A DNA stretch of 64,000 nt, taken from the sequence record PP449093.1; one strand, given 5' to 3'. The stretch is from Escherichia coli phage phiS. Under the pieces are notes generated by a model. It saw only the letters and a program-made list of their open reading frames with translations. It was not told the origin of the DNA and did not search any database. The stretch's first letter is position 1, and the number at the start of each line of letters is the position of its first letter. A program made the translations under genes and the position numbers. Positions 27,372-49,877 of the stretch are shown piece by piece.

Positions 27372-28052
27372 ATGATCAGAAACCGTCTTCCTCCAGATCC
27401 AGATATGCGAATTAATGCTAAATCTGTGTATATGTTATATTGCATGATGAAAGCTCATATGAACGGGCGTTATGATTGCGTAAAATATAATTGGAGGATG
27501 CGGTTATCTGATGCCGCATTCAATAAACGCAGAGATAAGTATTATTTCGCGAAATTAGCGGAAAAATACAATCTAAGAGAATTATACTTTCTATTCCTAA
27601 GCAATCTGGTAGCCAATACCGATGCATGGGTAGGTGAAATCACTGATGTTGACGCATACGGCTTTTATATGGAATACATAGGAAAGATAACCGATGCAGC
27701 AACACGATTTGACGATGACATTAAAAGTCTGGTATACTTCTCCGAGAAACGCGGGGTTACTCTTAAAGAGCTAATTACATACAATCCCGCAACCGAAACT
27801 AGCGGTATCTTTAAACTACTGCAAAATCGGATTATATCGTTTGAGTCGTTTATGTTGTTAGATAGCTTTCTAAATATAATCGACGAACACGACAAGGTAG
27901 CCAAAGACTTGATTTGGCAAACTTATAGTGTTAAAATGAAGGCGTACAAGAAACTACTTGTTATTGACGCCGCAAAAGCAAGAGCATTATTTGTTAAAGT
28001 AGTTAAAGAGTGTAAAGAAATATCTCAATTAAAAGCCGAAACAAATAGTTGA
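27372..28052 (+). CDS. 59: helicase loader / gp41 assembly protein gp59
   Basis: Resembles T4 gp59 (KSVY.LY.M.K.HMNG.YD..KYNW.MR.SDAA..KRRDKY.F.KL.EKY, FLSNLVAN.DAW.G.I.D.DA). Confidence 0.9.
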   Translation: MIRNRLPPDPDMRINAKSVYMLYCMMKAHMNGRYDCVKYNWRMRLSDAAFNKRRDKYYFAKLAEKYNLRELYFLFLSNLVANTDAWVGEITDVDAYGFYMEYIGKITDAATRFDDDIKSLVYFSEKRGVTLKELITYNPATETSGIFKLLQNRIISFESFMLLDSFLNIIDEHDKVAKDLIWQTYSVKMKAYKKLLVIDAAKARALFVKVVKECKEISQLKAETNS

Positions 28053-28076
28053 CAAGTAAACTTAAATCTGTATAAT
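28049..28076 (+). promoter_or_regulatory. sigma70-like promoter upstream of gene 32
   Basis: TTGACA, 16 nt spacer, TATAAT. Confidence 0.55.
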
Positions 28077-28118
28077 AGTCTAGCAAATTAATAGTTAATG
28101 TATAAAAGAGGTATAATT

Positions 28119-29066
28119 ATGAACATTTTTCGTCGTCAAGATTCTTCCAAACTGCAAGCTCAACTGGCAGCACTGAAAGGTAGCAACGGCTTCTCCAAAG
28201 AAGATCCGAAAGAGTGGAAGATTAAGACTGATGCAGCAGGTAACGGTGAAGCCCTGATTCGCTTCCTGCCGTCTAAGACAGAAGACGGTCTGCCGATTGT
28301 GAAACTGGTAAACCATTCCTTCAAAGTTAATGGCAAATGGTATTGGGAAAACTGCTCCAGCACCCACGGTGATTTTGATTCTTGCCCTGTGTGCAAATAT
28401 ATTAACGAAAAAGATCTGTACAATACCGATAAAACAGAATGGCAACTGATTAAGCGTAAAGCCTCTTACTACGCAAATATTCTGGTACTGAAAGATCCTC
28501 AAGCACCAGAAAATGAAGGTAATGTATTCAAATTCCGCTTCGGTCAGAAAATTTATGATAAGATCGTTGCAATGGTGAACGTGAATACCGACATGGGCGA
28601 AGTTCCGGTAGATGTAACTTGTGTGTTCTCCGGTGCTAACTTCCTCCTGAAAGCTAAGAAGGTTGATAAACACCAGAACTATGATGATTCTCGTTTCATG
28701 CAGCAATCACAGCTTCCGAAAATTGAAGACGAAGCATATCAGAAATATCTGATGGAAAACATGGTTGACCTGAGTGAGATTGTAGCGCCTAGCCAGTTTA
28801 AACCGTTCGATGAACTGGAAACCAAATTTAAGAAAACTATGGGCGTTTCTATGGTAGCTGGTGCTGCGGCTTCCAGTGCTGCGGCAGCGATTAACAGCCA
28901 GCTTGACGATTTTGACGCACAGATGAATGCATTCGATTCTGGTATAACCGCAGCTAGCACGGCGTTAGATTCTTCCGCTGATGACCTGATGGCATCTCTG
29001 GACCTGGGTGGCGGTACTTCCTCCGCTTCTGATCTGGATGATCTTGACGCTCTGTTAGGGATGTAA
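28119..29066 (+). CDS. 32: single-stranded DNA-binding protein gp32
   Basis: Resembles T4 gp32 (IRFLPSK, KWY.E.CSSTHGD.DS, CKYI...DLYNTD, PENEG.VFK.RFG.KI.DKI.AM, acidic Ala-rich C-terminus). Confidence 0.9.
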   Translation: MNIFRRQDSSKLQAQLAALKGSNGFSKEDPKEWKIKTDAAGNGEALIRFLPSKTEDGLPIVKLVNHSFKVNGKWYWENCSSTHGDFDSCPVCKYINEKDLYNTDKTEWQLIKRKASYYANILVLKDPQAPENEGNVFKFRFGQKIYDKIVAMVNVNTDMGEVPVDVTCVFSGANFLLKAKKVDKHQNYDDSRFMQQSQLPKIEDEAYQKYLMENMVDLSEIVAPSQFKPFDELETKFKKTMGVSMVAGAAASSAAAAINSQLDDFDAQMNAFDSGITAASTALDSSADDLMASLDLGGGTSSASDLDDLDALLGM

Positions 29067-29074
29067 TGAATTTT

Positions 29075-29104
29075 AAAGCCTTCCTTCGGGGAGGCTTTTT
29101 TATT
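29075..29104 (+). terminator. rho-independent terminator after gene 32
   Basis: GCCTTCC-TTCG-GGGAGGC followed by TTTTTTATT. Confidence 0.7.
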
Positions 29105-29128
29105 GCCTAAAATTTTATGAAAAAGGTG

Positions 29129-29156
29129 TTGACATGCTGATGTTAGGATGTATAAT
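29129..29156 (+). promoter_or_regulatory. sigma70-like early promoter
   Basis: AAAAAGGTGTTGACA, 16 nt spacer, TATAAT, ACAAACATCGAAAC leader. Confidence 0.6.
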
Positions 29157-29186
29157 ACAAACATCGAAACAAAGGAGGATAAAAAT

Positions 29187-30431
29187 ATGAAAACTTACTT
29201 TGCAAAAGATGTTTGTTATATTATCAAAAATAAATCCGTCTCAAAAACACCAGAACATTACGAGAATCTCTCAATAAGTTATGCATTGTCTCATGGTTTC
29301 GTTTATTTGGGGTTTATTGGAGAATATTCTGGATGCCAAACCCTGTCAAATTTTGAATGTAAAAGACATGGAACGTTTGCGGTCAGAGTAAAAAATCTAA
29401 ATCATGCTAAACATGGTTGCCCAAACTGTGCCCTTGAGAATAGGGCAGAAAAAAGAAAATTGAGTATAGAAAAGATTTATAACGACATAAATCGAATCTG
29501 TGATGAGAACGGAACCATAGAATTAACAGAAATTAAAGGTGGGTATAAAACAACAAAAACACGAAATTTATTTTTTAAATGTAAATTGTGTAATGGCATG
29601 TTTAATACATCACATGATCATTTAAAACGAGGTCAAGCATGTCCAAAATGTCGGTATAAAAAAATTTCTGTGTGTAATACTAGAAACCAACTTGATATTG
29701 AACTTGACATAAAAATAGAATGTAAAAAAAGAAAAACCGTTGAATTTGTAGAATTTGAAAATGGATATTGCAGATACAAGTCAAAAAATTTAATAATGAG
29801 ATGTTTGCGTGGACACGGAAATTACACAACAACAGCAAACGACTTTTTTAAGGGATGTGGTTGTCCTACATGCGGAGGAACGAAAAGACTAACAGAAAAA
29901 CAAGCATCTGAACAAATGATAAAAGAGTGTGAAATTAGAGGTTATGATTTTTTGGGATTTTTTAATGGGTATAAAAAGTCGGCAGAACCTAATGCAAAAT
30001 TAAAATGTAAACGCAGCGGGGTAAGTTTTTATACATCACACAACAATTTTATGAAAGGACAAAACTGTAAGTGTTGCTCTGAATTTGGATATAGAACAAC
30101 GAAATCTGGTGTTTTCTATGTACAGAAACTGTTAGAAAATAATATTTTTTGTGGTGTTAAATTTGGTGTAACCAATAGAACAACAAAAGAACGAATTGGA
30201 GGTCAATCTCGCCTTTCCAAATTCGACCACGAGATCTTTTATGAACTTACTTTACAAGACGGTCAAAAGATCTTAGACTTAGAGAACAAGATCAAGGAAG
30301 CGATGAAAGGTAAAACTTCCTATATCTCAAAAGAAGATATGCCGGATGGCTACACAGAGACAGTAGCACCGTCCGAATTGAGCACTATCATGTATATCGT
30401 AAAATCTTTTGAAAAAGAGTTGACAAAGTAA
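29187..30431 (+). CDS. Cys-rich protein: four tandem zinc-ribbon-like repeats plus C-terminal GIY-YIG-like domain
   Basis: Four repeats of about 28 aa ending in GCPxC / CPKC / CPTCGG / CKCC; C-terminal GVFYVQ...KFGVTNRTTKERI...EIFYEL; locus matches the T4 segG neighbourhood. Confidence 0.5.
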   Translation: MKTYFAKDVCYIIKNKSVSKTPEHYENLSISYALSHGFVYLGFIGEYSGCQTLSNFECKRHGTFAVRVKNLNHAKHGCPNCALENRAEKRKLSIEKIYNDINRICDENGTIELTEIKGGYKTTKTRNLFFKCKLCNGMFNTSHDHLKRGQACPKCRYKKISVCNTRNQLDIELDIKIECKKRKTVEFVEFENGYCRYKSKNLIMRCLRGHGNYTTTANDFFKGCGCPTCGGTKRLTEKQASEQMIKECEIRGYDFLGFFNGYKKSAEPNAKLKCKRSGVSFYTSHNNFMKGQNCKCCSEFGYRTTKSGVFYVQKLLENNIFCGVKFGVTNRTTKERIGGQSRLSKFDHEIFYELTLQDGQKILDLENKIKEAMKGKTSYISKEDMPDGYTETVAPSELSTIMYIVKSFEKELTK

Positions 30432-30447
30432 CATAGTATTGTATAAT
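30420..30447 (+). promoter_or_regulatory. sigma70-like early promoter
   Basis: TTGACA, 16 nt spacer, TATAAT, CGAACATCGAAAC leader; near-duplicate of the 29129 promoter. Confidence 0.6.
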
Positions 30448-30478
30448 ACGAACATCGAAACAAAGTGAGGATTACATT

Positions 30479-30808
30479 ATGTGGACTGTAGAACAAGAAG
30501 TTAACGGATCAATCGAAATTCTGTCTTGTGGTACTATTGAGGAATGTCTTAATACAGCCAACCGCAATTGTATTACAATTTATGAGTCTCGTCGCGGTGA
30601 TGGTAGTTTAATTCAAAGTGATTATCGTTACACTGCCGATAAAATTATCTTTCGTTTCTGGGAAAATGGTGTTAACGTTGGTGTCAGCCTACTGAAAAAG
30701 TATCGTGACTATTCAGAACGCTATTATGTTTGCCCTGATGATGGCACAGTGTTTAAAACAGAGATTAACGAAGAAAACGTTAACGAAAACTACCTTAAAA
30801 TGGTCTGA
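30479..30808 (+). CDS. hypothetical protein (109 aa)
   Basis: ORF after AGTGAGGATTACATT SD motif. Confidence 0.55.
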   Translation: MWTVEQEVNGSIEILSCGTIEECLNTANRNCITIYESRRGDGSLIQSDYRYTADKIIFRFWENGVNVGVSLLKKYRDYSERYYVCPDDGTVFKTEINEENVNENYLKMV

Positions 30809-30821
30809 TAGGAGATATATT

Positions 30822-31403
30822 ATGATTCAATGTGTATTTGCGATTGGTGACACTAAAATGTCGGATGAAAATTGGGCGTTTGGTTTTAAAGGCGGCTTAC
30901 CGTGGGGTCGTCCAATCAAAAAGGATATGGAAAACTTTAAAATGCGCACTATGGGAGATGTTGATCTTGCGGCGGTGGTAATGGGACGTAATACCTTTGA
31001 AAGTCTCCCTAAAGCACTGGAAGGTCGTGTGAATGTGGTTGTTAGCACCGATACCAGTAAGCCAGCACCGAAAGCAAAAAACGGCGACCAACCAGATGTG
31101 TATACCGCGATTACTAATGATGGTGGATTGAAGGAATTATTAGAAGTCATAGAGAAATTGCAAGGTTTGGTAAGCGTTATTGGTGGACCTTCCCTGATTG
31201 AAAAAGCAGTTGACTTTGCGGACCGTATTGTGTTAACGTATGTTCAACGTTCAGGGATCAACGATCCATTTGAATATGATGTTGGTATATCTAAGGAAAT
31301 GATTCAGGAATTGTATTTTGACTTTGTAACCAAAGAAGAACATAATTACTTCCTTGATAATTACCTGATCAGCGAACAAATTTTAGAACGTAAGAAGGCG
31401 TAA
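30822..31403 (+). CDS. frd: dihydrofolate reductase
   Basis: 193 aa; DHFR motifs (GLPWGRP.KKD...F...T, V.GR.TFESLP, VIGGPSL); ATG at 30822 after GGAGA, ORF-track start at 30705 is further upstream. Confidence 0.85.
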   Translation: MIQCVFAIGDTKMSDENWAFGFKGGLPWGRPIKKDMENFKMRTMGDVDLAAVVMGRNTFESLPKALEGRVNVVVSTDTSKPAPKAKNGDQPDVYTAITNDGGLKELLEVIEKLQGLVSVIGGPSLIEKAVDFADRIVLTYVQRSGINDPFEYDVGISKEMIQELYFDFVTKEEHNYFLDNYLISEQILERKKA

Positions 31404-31404
31404 C

Positions 31405-31497
31405 ATGAAAATTCTGACAGATTATGAGTGCAAACATTGTGGTGAATCTTTGATGTTTGCTGGTAGTCGGTGCTTACATTGCGGACGGGAGCAATAA
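31405..31497 (+). CDS. small zinc-ribbon peptide (30 aa)
   Basis: CKHCGE...CLHCG between frd and td; below ORF-track cutoff. Confidence 0.4.
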   Translation: MKILTDYECKHCGESLMFAGSRCLHCGREQ

Positions 31498-31766
31498 TGA
31501 AAGTCGGTATTATTCAATTATGGACGGCTACCAGTGAAAACTACGCAGTAGCCGTAGATTATTACGGGTTACAATATCTCTATGATGAAGCTAAAGCGTC
31601 ATGGCTTCCAGTACAGGAAAATAGCGACATTTCAAGACCTGTTACTGTATTCGATCCTGGAGTTGTCTTTATCGATATTGACGAGACAGTAGCAAAACTG
31701 CGTAAGAAAGCAATCAACAAGAAAAAGGTGATGTGGGATGAAAGAATATTTGAAACTGTTGCGTGA
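31497..31766 (+). CDS. hypothetical protein (89 aa)
   Basis: TAATG overlap with the upstream peptide; in frame with ORF-track 31470..31766. Confidence 0.5.
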   Translation: MKVGIIQLWTATSENYAVAVDYYGLQYLYDEAKASWLPVQENSDISRPVTVFDPGVVFIDIDETVAKLRKKAINKKKVMWDERIFETVA

Positions 31767-32958
31767 TGTTCTTGATAATGGCTGGCCTCGTGAAGACCGA
31801 ACTGGGGTAGGTACGCTCTCTAAATTCGGCGCAGAGATGCGAATTGATTTAAGCAAGGGTTTCCCATTACTGACCACTAAAAAGATGGCTACAGCCTCTG
31901 TAATTGGCGAATTGCTATGGTTTATGGAGGGATCACTTGACCGCCGTCGCTTACAGGAAATTACACGCGGCAAGTTTGACGAAGAAGCCTTCGACATTTG
32001 GCGCGGCAACTGTCTTGATATGAAAGAAAAGAATCCTTTGCGATTCAATGGTTATAATGTCGGCAATATGTATGGTATGGCGTGGCGACGCAAACCGATT
32101 CATCCACACGGTGAAATCAAAATTAAGCGCGTTAAGAGCAAATATACACATACATTTAAGCACCCGTGGGTAGAAGACTTTACGCCAACCAATGAAACAG
32201 AAGACCGTTTATGTGCTATCTGGCGTGGTATGCGTTATGAAGAGTTTGATTGTATTCTGGTAGCAGACCACTGGAAGACTCAATCTAATTTTGTTAATGA
32301 TGCATATTGCTTGTGGGGATTCCAGGAATGGGTAGATAGTGGTTATTTCGATTATCTGCTTGATAGTGATTATCTGGGCGGTGACATTTTAGCACCGGAT
32401 ACCACGATCTTTGTTAGTATGGACGTAGACACATCAAGCCCTAAAGACGATGAGGAATATGTATATCGCCAGAAGATTTGGGAAGACCAGTTACAAAACG
32501 TGATTGAACAAATTAAAAACAATCCAACAGATCGCCGGATCATTATTGACTCATGGAACGTACAAGGAACACATAATGCTGTATTAGGTGTATGTCATCC
32601 TTTCGTGCAATTCTATGTCAATGAAGGTAAACTGTCTTGTATGTGGTTTCAGCGAAGCGTAGACAGCTTTTTGGGCTTGCCCTTTAACGTCGCCAGCTAT
32701 GCGCTGTTAACTCACATCATAGCGAAAATGTGTGATCTTGAGGTAGGAGAACTGATTTTCTCTGGTGGAGATACTCACATTTACAAAAACCACTTTGATC
32801 AAGTTATGGAACAGTTAAGCCGTGTTCCGTTTGATAAACCAACAATTGAGTTGCCGGAATTTAAATCTTTAGATGAGATATTGACAAAGACTCCGAAAGA
32901 CTTTAAAATTCACAACTATCAAAGCCATCCAGCGATCACAGCTCAAATGGCAGTATAA
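31738..32958 (+). CDS. td: thymidylate synthase with about 130-aa insertion in the small domain, intron-less
   Basis: ThyA motifs (DRTGVGT, MYGMAWRR, DRRIIIDSWN, CHPFVQFYV, DSFLGLPFNVASYALLTHI, GGDTHIY); continuous 406-aa frame. Confidence 0.9.
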   Translation: MKEYLKLLRDVLDNGWPREDRTGVGTLSKFGAEMRIDLSKGFPLLTTKKMATASVIGELLWFMEGSLDRRRLQEITRGKFDEEAFDIWRGNCLDMKEKNPLRFNGYNVGNMYGMAWRRKPIHPHGEIKIKRVKSKYTHTFKHPWVEDFTPTNETEDRLCAIWRGMRYEEFDCILVADHWKTQSNFVNDAYCLWGFQEWVDSGYFDYLLDSDYLGGDILAPDTTIFVSMDVDTSSPKDDEEYVYRQKIWEDQLQNVIEQIKNNPTDRRIIIDSWNVQGTHNAVLGVCHPFVQFYVNEGKLSCMWFQRSVDSFLGLPFNVASYALLTHIIAKMCDLEVGELIFSGGDTHIYKNHFDQVMEQLSRVPFDKPTIELPEFKSLDEILTKTPKDFKIHNYQSHPAITAQMAV

Positions 32959-49828: not shown

Positions 49829-49857
49829 AGCCGACCTTAGCGTCGGCTTTTTTATTG
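49829..49857 (+). terminator. rho-independent terminator
   Basis: AGCCGAC-CTTAGC-GTCGGCT followed by TTTTTTATT. Confidence 0.7.
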
Positions 49858-49877
49858 CATAAAATTTTAAAAAAGAA

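Follow-up and report, generated by a model that had tools for sequence, protein, structure and literature searches.

A putative T5orf172-type nuclease gene with four CapR-type zinc modules in the slot after gene 32 of Escherichia coli phage phiS

The DNA of Escherichia coli phage phiS analysed here (sequence record PP449093.1, 64,000 nucleotides, hereafter the window) comes from a Krischvirus, an RB49-like coliphage of the T4 type. Positions 29187–30431 encode a cysteine-rich protein of 414 amino acids (aa), in which four predicted zinc modules precede a predicted nuclease domain. We propose that this is probably a free-standing gene of the homing-endonuclease type, belonging to the T5orf172 family of the GIY-YIG superfamily and occupying a cassette slot after gene 32. 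The architecture is already known from T5orf172 homing endonuclease genes (HEGs; Netter 2021; Barth 2021, 2023). The feature is real and largely as it was first interpreted from the letters alone by a first-pass annotation; its most useful aspect is a natural series of alleles at one slot. The coding sequence and its parts are as follows.

29187–30431, + strand: coding sequence, 414 aa, four CapR-type zinc modules then a putative T5orf172-type GIY-YIG nuclease domain (open reading frame list, PHROG 681, Pfam CapR)
29250–29438, + strand: zinc module R1 (aa 22–84), predicted ligands C58, H61, C78 and C81; helix, three strands and knuckles, predicted local distance difference test (pLDDT) score ~94
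29466–29660, + strand: zinc module R2 (aa 94–158), predicted ligands C132, C135, C152 and C155
29688–29882, + strand: zinc module R3 (aa 168–232), predicted ligands C206, H210, C226 and C229
29895–30086, + strand: zinc module R4 (aa 237–300), with C274, C294 and C297
30099–30428, + strand: predicted T5orf172-type GIY-YIG nuclease domain (aa 305–414), with Tyr311, Lys325-Phe-Gly327, Arg336, Glu366, Gly388, Thr390, Glu391 and Thr392

The open reading frame (ORF) begins at an ATG at 29187, preceded by an AAGGAGG ribosome-binding site (RBS; 29172–29178), and its stop codon lies at 30429–30431, exactly where the first-pass annotation had placed its limits; competing ORFs across the gene, in the other frames and on the other strand, reach merely 40–52 aa. 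The gene has a GC content of 32.7% (31.7% in the part encoding the N-terminal region) versus 40.1% for the whole window. Its product was described from the outset as cysteine-rich, and this holds: 22 of its 23 cysteines fall within residues 1–300 and one beyond, making up 7.3% of that region versus 1.4% of the long ORFs of the window. The protein matches PHROG 681, labelled 'endonuclease', at E = 8.5e-71. Scans with Pfam, NCBIfam and PADLOC gave no direct match to a nuclease or defence family; a match to SbcD_C (E = 0.04–0.24) was dismissed as chance, and a PDB sequence search with the whole protein returned chance-level matches only. The gene is best annotated as a putative T5orf172-type endonuclease, not as a hypothetical protein.

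The N-terminal region is assigned to the CapR homology domain (PF21817), which Pfam detects at 42.4 bits (gathering cut-off 24.2; E = 8.1e-11) in four stretches, the best of which covers residues 101–155 within R2. Four tandem repeats had been proposed, each ending in a CPxC-type pair; the number and the terminal C-x-x-C pairs stand (CPNC at residue 78, CPKC at 152, CPTC at 226 and CKCC at 294), whereas the suggested length of about 28 aa gives way to a unit of ~56 aa plus linker that recurs at intervals of 74, 74 and 68 aa. First knuckles occur ~20 residues before each pair (CKRH at 58, CKLC at 132, CLRGH at 206 and CKRS at 274), and the two knuckles of a module together span ~24–28 aa. The pairs at 58/78, 132/152 and 206/226 thus have the spacing of ~20–26 residues that characterises CapR, and the fourth module comprises C274 with C294, C296 and C297. 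Its first knuckle, CKRS, is without the second ligand, for which C296 may substitute; C274, C294 and C297 are invariant across 28 homologues. Repeats 2–4 are clearly related to one another (local alignment z = 9.3–12.6, with none of 500 shuffles reaching the observed score), and repeat 1 is more divergent from the others (z = 1.3–3.8).

In an AlphaFold2 model of the full-length protein, each module is predicted to comprise a long helix and three short strands, with another, short helix ahead of the second knuckle. The model has a pLDDT of 87 but a predicted template modelling (pTM) score of 0.36, a combination that indicates well-folded beads on a string whose mutual orientation is not fixed. 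A Foldseek search of the PDB with this model found nothing significant (best E = 0.08), so the zinc module is without a recognisable solved relative by this route. Taken together, the sequence and profile evidence supports N-terminal repeats that are zinc-ribbon or treble-clef-type modules of the CapR homology domain, in keeping with the zinc ribbons initially suggested.

For the C-terminal domain, the proposal of a GIY-YIG-like or T5orf172-type nuclease has been strengthened by its homologues, although the protein itself falls below family thresholds. T5orf172 (Pfam PF10544) and MUG113 (Pfam PF13455) are the relevant families, a branch of the GIY-YIG superfamily. Residues 298–414, searched against a library of 1.8 billion representatives, retrieved 396 relatives at E ≤ 1e-3; the best 150 of these are proteins of 77–621 aa that carry the domain at their C-terminal end. 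An alignment of 40 members (the phiS domain and 39 homologues) contains Pfam matches to MUG113 in 19 members (best E = 5.8e-8), to T5orf172 in 10 (best E = 8.5e-8) and to GIY-YIG in one; CapR modules are carried by 15 of the 40 and DUF4379 modules by 17. Four residues never vary in this alignment (E366, G388, E391 and T392), and another four reach at least 90% conservation (Y311, K325, G327 and R336); the motifs kept among homologues are GVFYV (containing Tyr311), KFGVT (325–329), Arg336 and Glu366. The second GIY-YIG motif reads K-F-G, with Phe326 in place of the second tyrosine.

By tblastn, 'putative homing endonucleases' of T5-like phages match at E = 1e-16. The domain profile aligns with that of Odn, the origin-directed nuclease of phage ICP1, at E = 7.9e-4 over 92 columns, placing Arg336 on an Odn arginine and Glu366 on Odn E180; the assignment of these catalytic positions comes from the sequence alignment with Odn rather than from superposed coordinates. 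The E180A substitution abolishes cleavage by Odn in vitro and in vivo (PMC8263062). A model of the isolated domain (pLDDT 96.8) has a beta-beta-alpha-beta-alpha core; the predicted fold, a three-stranded sheet flanked by helices, has the GIY-YIG order (beta1-beta2-alpha1-beta3-alpha2) and likeness to solved GIY-YIG domains. Among predicted structures of viral proteins (BFVD), 97 models match the nuclease domain at E ≤ 1e-3, some of them named as homing endonucleases, as T5 Orf172 proteins, or as proteins that contain a CapR homology domain or a GIY-YIG domain. These lines of evidence, drawn from homologues and predicted structure, support assigning the C-terminus to the T5orf172 type within the GIY-YIG superfamily. 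The idea of a Seg-type protein was discarded: the nuclease domain lies at the C-terminus, and hhalign comparisons gave E = 0.12 with SegG and E = 0.17 with I-TevI, over 9–13 columns. The domain order is indeed the reverse of that in Seg proteins and I-TevI, as had been remarked, but it is not new, being standard for T5orf172 HEGs (PMC10448857, PMC8096241).

The gene and its neighbours run in the order dsbA, late transcription regulator, gene 59, gene 32, the nuclease gene, a 109-aa ORF, frd, a small ORF and td. The elements that define its slot are listed here.

27372–28052: gene 59
28098–29066: gene 32
29075–29098, + strand: intrinsic terminator stem-loop after gene 32 (10-bp stem then T run), the stem-loop half of a PeSL-type cassette
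29129–29156, + strand: consensus sigma-70 (early-type) promoter of the nuclease gene (TTGACA-16-TATAAT, 12/12 matches)
29149–29179, + strand: left copy of the -10 box, leader and RBS (TGTATAATACAAACATCGAAACAAAGGAGGA), containing a 26-nucleotide stretch with 96% identity to 30440–30465
30209–30431, + strand: backbone-like 3' segment of the gene (last ~74 codons), 93–98% nucleotide identity between alleles versus ~55–65% for the 5' parts
30420–30447, + strand: second consensus promoter, for the downstream 109-aa ORF (12/12 matches), with its -35 box within the last codons of the nuclease gene
30440–30470, + strand: right copy of the -10 box, leader and RBS
30479–30808, + strand: downstream 109-aa ORF, function not assigned, no Pfam match

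The terminator stem-loop is annotated in phage GEC-3S and is also found at the empty site of phage JSE. The promoter of the nuclease gene is annotated at the equivalent position in GEC-3S, and the annotation of that phage likewise marks an embedded promoter with its -35 element inside BN201_0241. A PeSL cassette is flanked on both sides by an early promoter and a stem-loop. Here, both elements are found upstream of the gene, but downstream there is a promoter only, the right-hand repeat being without a stem-loop and its -35 box lying inside the coding sequence. In another part of the window, positions 49848–49869 match the A-rich sequence ahead of the promoter (29096–29117) over 22 nucleotides at 95%, which suggests a further copy of the early promoter cassette.

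The region 28000–31500 is 92.6% identical to Escherichia phage kaaroe, and ~89–91% identical over 65–74% of its length to RB49, Phi1, GEC-3S, JSE and others. Occupancy of the slot, defined as the interval between gene 32 and the downstream 109-aa ORF (29067–30478 in the window), was surveyed in 58 Krischvirus records. An allele of the nuclease gene is found in ~27 of them; ~22 records (KFS-EC-type phages) carry instead an unrelated ORFan, also of 109 aa and without a Pfam match, and ~6 are empty. The extra ORF of the KFS-EC-type phages was checked as a possible remnant of the nuclease gene or duplicate of the downstream ORF, and is neither. A precise empty site is found in JSE, FL20, KMB43, LF73P4 and PHB13; in JSE, a single terminator stem-loop, a single consensus early promoter and a single leader/RBS separate gene 32 from the downstream 109-aa ORF. 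Presence and absence at a single site in close relatives is a pattern expected of homing genes. Within the window, tblastn and blastn revealed neither a paralogue of the gene nor a repeat of its conserved 3' segment.

Alleles at this slot have widely divergent zinc arrays, which are ~40% identical to one another. Those examined encode 182 to 541 aa, and homologues carry 2–6 modules. The phiS gene is 98% identical to the kaaroe allele, whereas its modules share at most 41% identity with any module of the other alleles, several of which hold recently duplicated modules up to 86% identical to each other. Sliding nucleotide identity to RB49 runs at 95–100% up to 29171, falls to ~55–65% across 29172–30208 and returns to 90–100% across 30209–30448. 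The 3' segment is present in one copy per genome in 23–27 Krischvirus records. Across the last 74 codons synonymous differences exceed non-synonymous ones (for example, 11 versus 3); the nuclease domain is thus under purifying selection and therefore does something. A known RNA element does not explain the conservation of this segment, since no Rfam family reached its gathering score anywhere in the window (1–64000) and the differences are mainly synonymous.

Crossover positions vary by allele, lying at about codon 328 in JEP8 and about codon 346 in RB49, and the MIZ4 allele shares the last ~13 codons only. In MIZ4 the gene is broken into three successive ORFs of 41, 36 and 185 aa, which jointly match an intact homologue of 274 aa; this copy is either a decaying gene or a product of sequencing errors. 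The downstream 109-aa ORF is 84% identical in amino acid sequence to that of JSE and 67% identical to those of kaaroe and RB49; the neighbouring nuclease gene is instead 98% identical to its kaaroe counterpart, which places a boundary of exchange at the 3' end of this gene. Signs of invasion and decay, together with recombination tracts that end at the gene, are expected of homing genes and are represented here by MIZ4, the mosaic boundaries and the low GC content. The presence/absence polymorphism and mosaic flanks therefore fit a mobile nuclease gene, in line with the earlier suggestion.

Under the most likely reading, the phiS gene would act as follows. The zinc modules would jointly read a long DNA site, and the C-terminal domain would cut the DNA nearby by metal-ion catalysis involving Glu366 and Arg336. 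In a mixed infection, the break in a genome without this allele would be repaired from the carrier genome, and repair would copy the gene and neighbouring markers of the gene 32/frd region into the recipient. The promoter and leader repeats and the conserved 3' end would supply homology for such exchanges, and the promoter within the last codons of the gene would make its clean loss costly, as has been argued for the retention of T4 seg and mob genes with embedded promoters (PMC2988022).

Several observations weigh against a homing endonuclease. The second motif is KFG rather than YIG, neither the full protein nor the isolated domain matches Pfam T5orf172, MUG113 or GIY-YIG at E ≤ 1, and the putative nuclease assignment is drawn from homologues, profile alignment and predicted fold. 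The literature searched gives no cleavage, zinc-binding or super-Mendelian inheritance result for any CapR-array T5orf172 protein, the phiS protein included. The target site is not inferable by comparing occupied with empty sites, the flanks of which are near-identical. The gene has a perfect early-type promoter, whereas T4 homing endonuclease genes are driven by middle or late promoters, not early ones (PMC2988022). Finally, repeated promoters bound the slot, which in other phages is occupied by an unrelated ORFan, so that recombination between such promoter cassettes could account for gain and loss with no nuclease involved. Accordingly, one alternative is that the gene is a passenger of PeSL shuffling, moved by homologous recombination between early promoter/leader repeats with its own nuclease uninvolved. 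The PeSL model was itself derived from RB49 and phi1 (Arbiol et al. 2010; PMC2839356), and the arrangement at this slot resembles it: terminator, promoter and leader upstream, promoter and leader again downstream, exactly one copy at the empty JSE site, and an ORFan in the slot of ~22 genomes. We nevertheless regard this alternative as unlikely: the right-hand repeat is without a stem-loop and has its -35 box in coding sequence, the crossovers that replace alleles fall at varying places inside the nuclease domain rather than at the promoter repeat, and that domain is under purifying selection. The passenger reading concerns mobility only and can coexist with that of a homing nuclease.

The early promoter is more readily accommodated by a domesticated nuclease of benefit to the phage, expressed early to cut the DNA of a competitor (a co-infecting related phage, a satellite or the host), with a swappable zinc array that sets its specificity in the manner of Odn. 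Odn and Odn-like coliphage genes provide a precedent, and a single locus that combines a backbone-like nuclease 3' end with very different arrays of 2–6 modules is as expected of an arms race over specificity. This explanation we hold to be the strongest of the alternatives, if still rather unlikely. The gene is missing from many close relatives, swapped for an ORFan in others and broken in MIZ4, and is thus dispensable; the protein lacks RepA_N and any other domain taken over from a known target, and no defence-system model matched. Much less credible is a sequence-specific regulator that binds DNA without cleaving it, a CapR-like repressor in which T5orf172 serves as a DNA-binding or dimerisation module. 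The founding member of the zinc module family, CapR, represses transcription and binds a -35 element, and T5orf172 was first annotated as a DNA-binding domain (PMC8096241), a description that persists in BFVD names; the replacement of the canonical second tyrosine by phenylalanine would also suit such a role. Against this, CapR is without the T5orf172 domain that the phiS protein keeps, Odn shows this domain to be an active nuclease, and Arg336 and Glu366, the latter aligned to the catalytic glutamate of Odn, are conserved or invariant in distant homologues. The conservation of catalytic residues disfavours a non-cleaving regulator.

A more speculative elaboration, to which we give slightly less credence than to the PeSL passenger, is that the slot is a battleground of rival nuclease alleles. 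Here, the 3' nuclease segment and the repeated promoter would be fixed homology arms and the zinc array an exchangeable specificity cassette, with each allele cutting the array DNA of its rivals, or the empty or ORFan-filled slot, and replacing them while dragging gene 32/frd markers along. If so, the locus would exemplify frequency-dependent diversification of target specificity at one site of T4-type phages, brought about by an early-expressed nuclease. A free-standing homing endonuclease gene remains our preferred reading of the phiS ORF.

Gene 32 and its other flank also bear on the comparison with T4. The first-pass annotation had located the gene where T4 carries segG, between gene 32 and frd, but this was mistaken: segG is on the opposite flank of gene 32, its target, with gene 59 as its other neighbour, and the T4 interval from 32 to frd holds frd.3, frd.2 and frd.1 (PMC2988022). 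In the phages Skers and MIZ4, an HNH (homing) endonuclease occupies the position between genes 59 and 32 that corresponds to T4 segG, and the window has none there (~28053–28097). Within the genus, gene 32 can therefore have a different nuclease gene on each side. Positions 28060–28180 of the window, spanning the gene 59/32 junction and the start of gene 32, show 79–88% identity to kaaroe, RB49 and JSE, including a 12-nucleotide gap, amid surroundings of 97–100%; this patch may be a recombination scar beside the HNH insertion site of other phages. Farther downstream, td (31738–32958) encodes a thymidylate synthase of 406 aa that its Pfam model matches in two stretches, with an in-frame insert of ~130 aa at about residues 116–248; RB49, JSE and kaaroe have td genes of similar length. 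What interrupts td in T4 is not an in-frame insertion but an intron that carries I-TevI.

The phiS gene extends the zinc-array T5orf172 class of putative homing nucleases to T4-type coliphages. T4 itself is without T5orf172 genes (PMC10448857), and the published survey does not include Krischvirus: no gene of RB49-type phages or Krischvirus is listed in its supplements (PMC10448857). Our literature search found no description of this Krischvirus gene, and the PeSL paper (PMC2839356) does not mention it. In E. coli phages that are easy to handle, the slot provides a natural one-locus series, from empty and ORFan-filled states through intact alleles of 2–6 modules to a decayed copy, which suits tests of whether homing occurs at all, how the array encodes target specificity and how the nuclease gene affects exchange around the essential gene 32.

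Among known systems, the closest are the putative zinc-array T5orf172 HEGs of ICP1 (Gp165, Gp174 and others), Vibrio phage Helene, and T5-like and Aeromonas phages, with which the phiS gene shares the order of N-terminal repeated zinc modules and C-terminal T5orf172 domain. Barth, Dunham and Seed (2023) found CapR, DUF723 or DUF4379 modules, often repeated, in 87% of 229 T5orf172 genes, and reported that homologous T5orf172 domains exchange their DNA-binding regions and that the genes lie at boundaries of genetic exchange (PMC10448857). The same features recur here: the gene adjoins an essential replication gene and an exchange boundary, DNA-binding regions have been swapped on homologous nuclease domains, and module number varies by internal duplication. 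Unlike the surveyed HEGs, it resides in a T4-type phage (Straboviridae, Krischvirus), has many alleles at one fixed slot and a 3' third that behaves as phage backbone, and encodes a protein below the Pfam T5orf172 threshold.

Two systems resemble the two halves of the protein. Odn (ICP1 Gp88) shares the C-terminal T5orf172 domain, with 92 aligned columns and the arginine and glutamate retained (E180 corresponding to E366), but it uses a borrowed RepA_N domain in place of the four CapR-type zinc modules of the phiS protein. CapR of the Vibrio cholerae satellite PLE shares the PF21817 module and its two cysteine pairs 20–26 residues apart. Netter et al. (2021) described it as a zinc-finger DNA-binding protein whose four cysteines are needed for binding, and related it to the N-termini of ICP1 T5orf172 proteins (PMC8096241). 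CapR has one module, acts as a repressor and contains no nuclease domain, whereas the phiS protein combines four modules with a putative nuclease.

T4 SegG, the other Seg proteins and I-TevI have the GIY-YIG-superfamily catalytic fold predicted here, and there is likewise a free-standing gene beside gene 32 with the promoter of the downstream gene embedded in its coding sequence. They differ in their reversed domain order and other DNA-binding domains, and the phiS protein has no significant profile similarity to SegG or I-TevI; moreover, segG lies on the other side of gene 32 and Seg genes are not driven by early promoters. With the PeSL cassettes of RB49 and phi1, the slot shares a non-essential gene, repeated strong early promoters, a terminator stem-loop and a single copy at the empty site of relatives. 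It departs from them in carrying a putative nuclease rather than an ORFan as cargo, in a downstream repeat without a stem-loop, and in the replacement of alleles by crossovers inside the gene.

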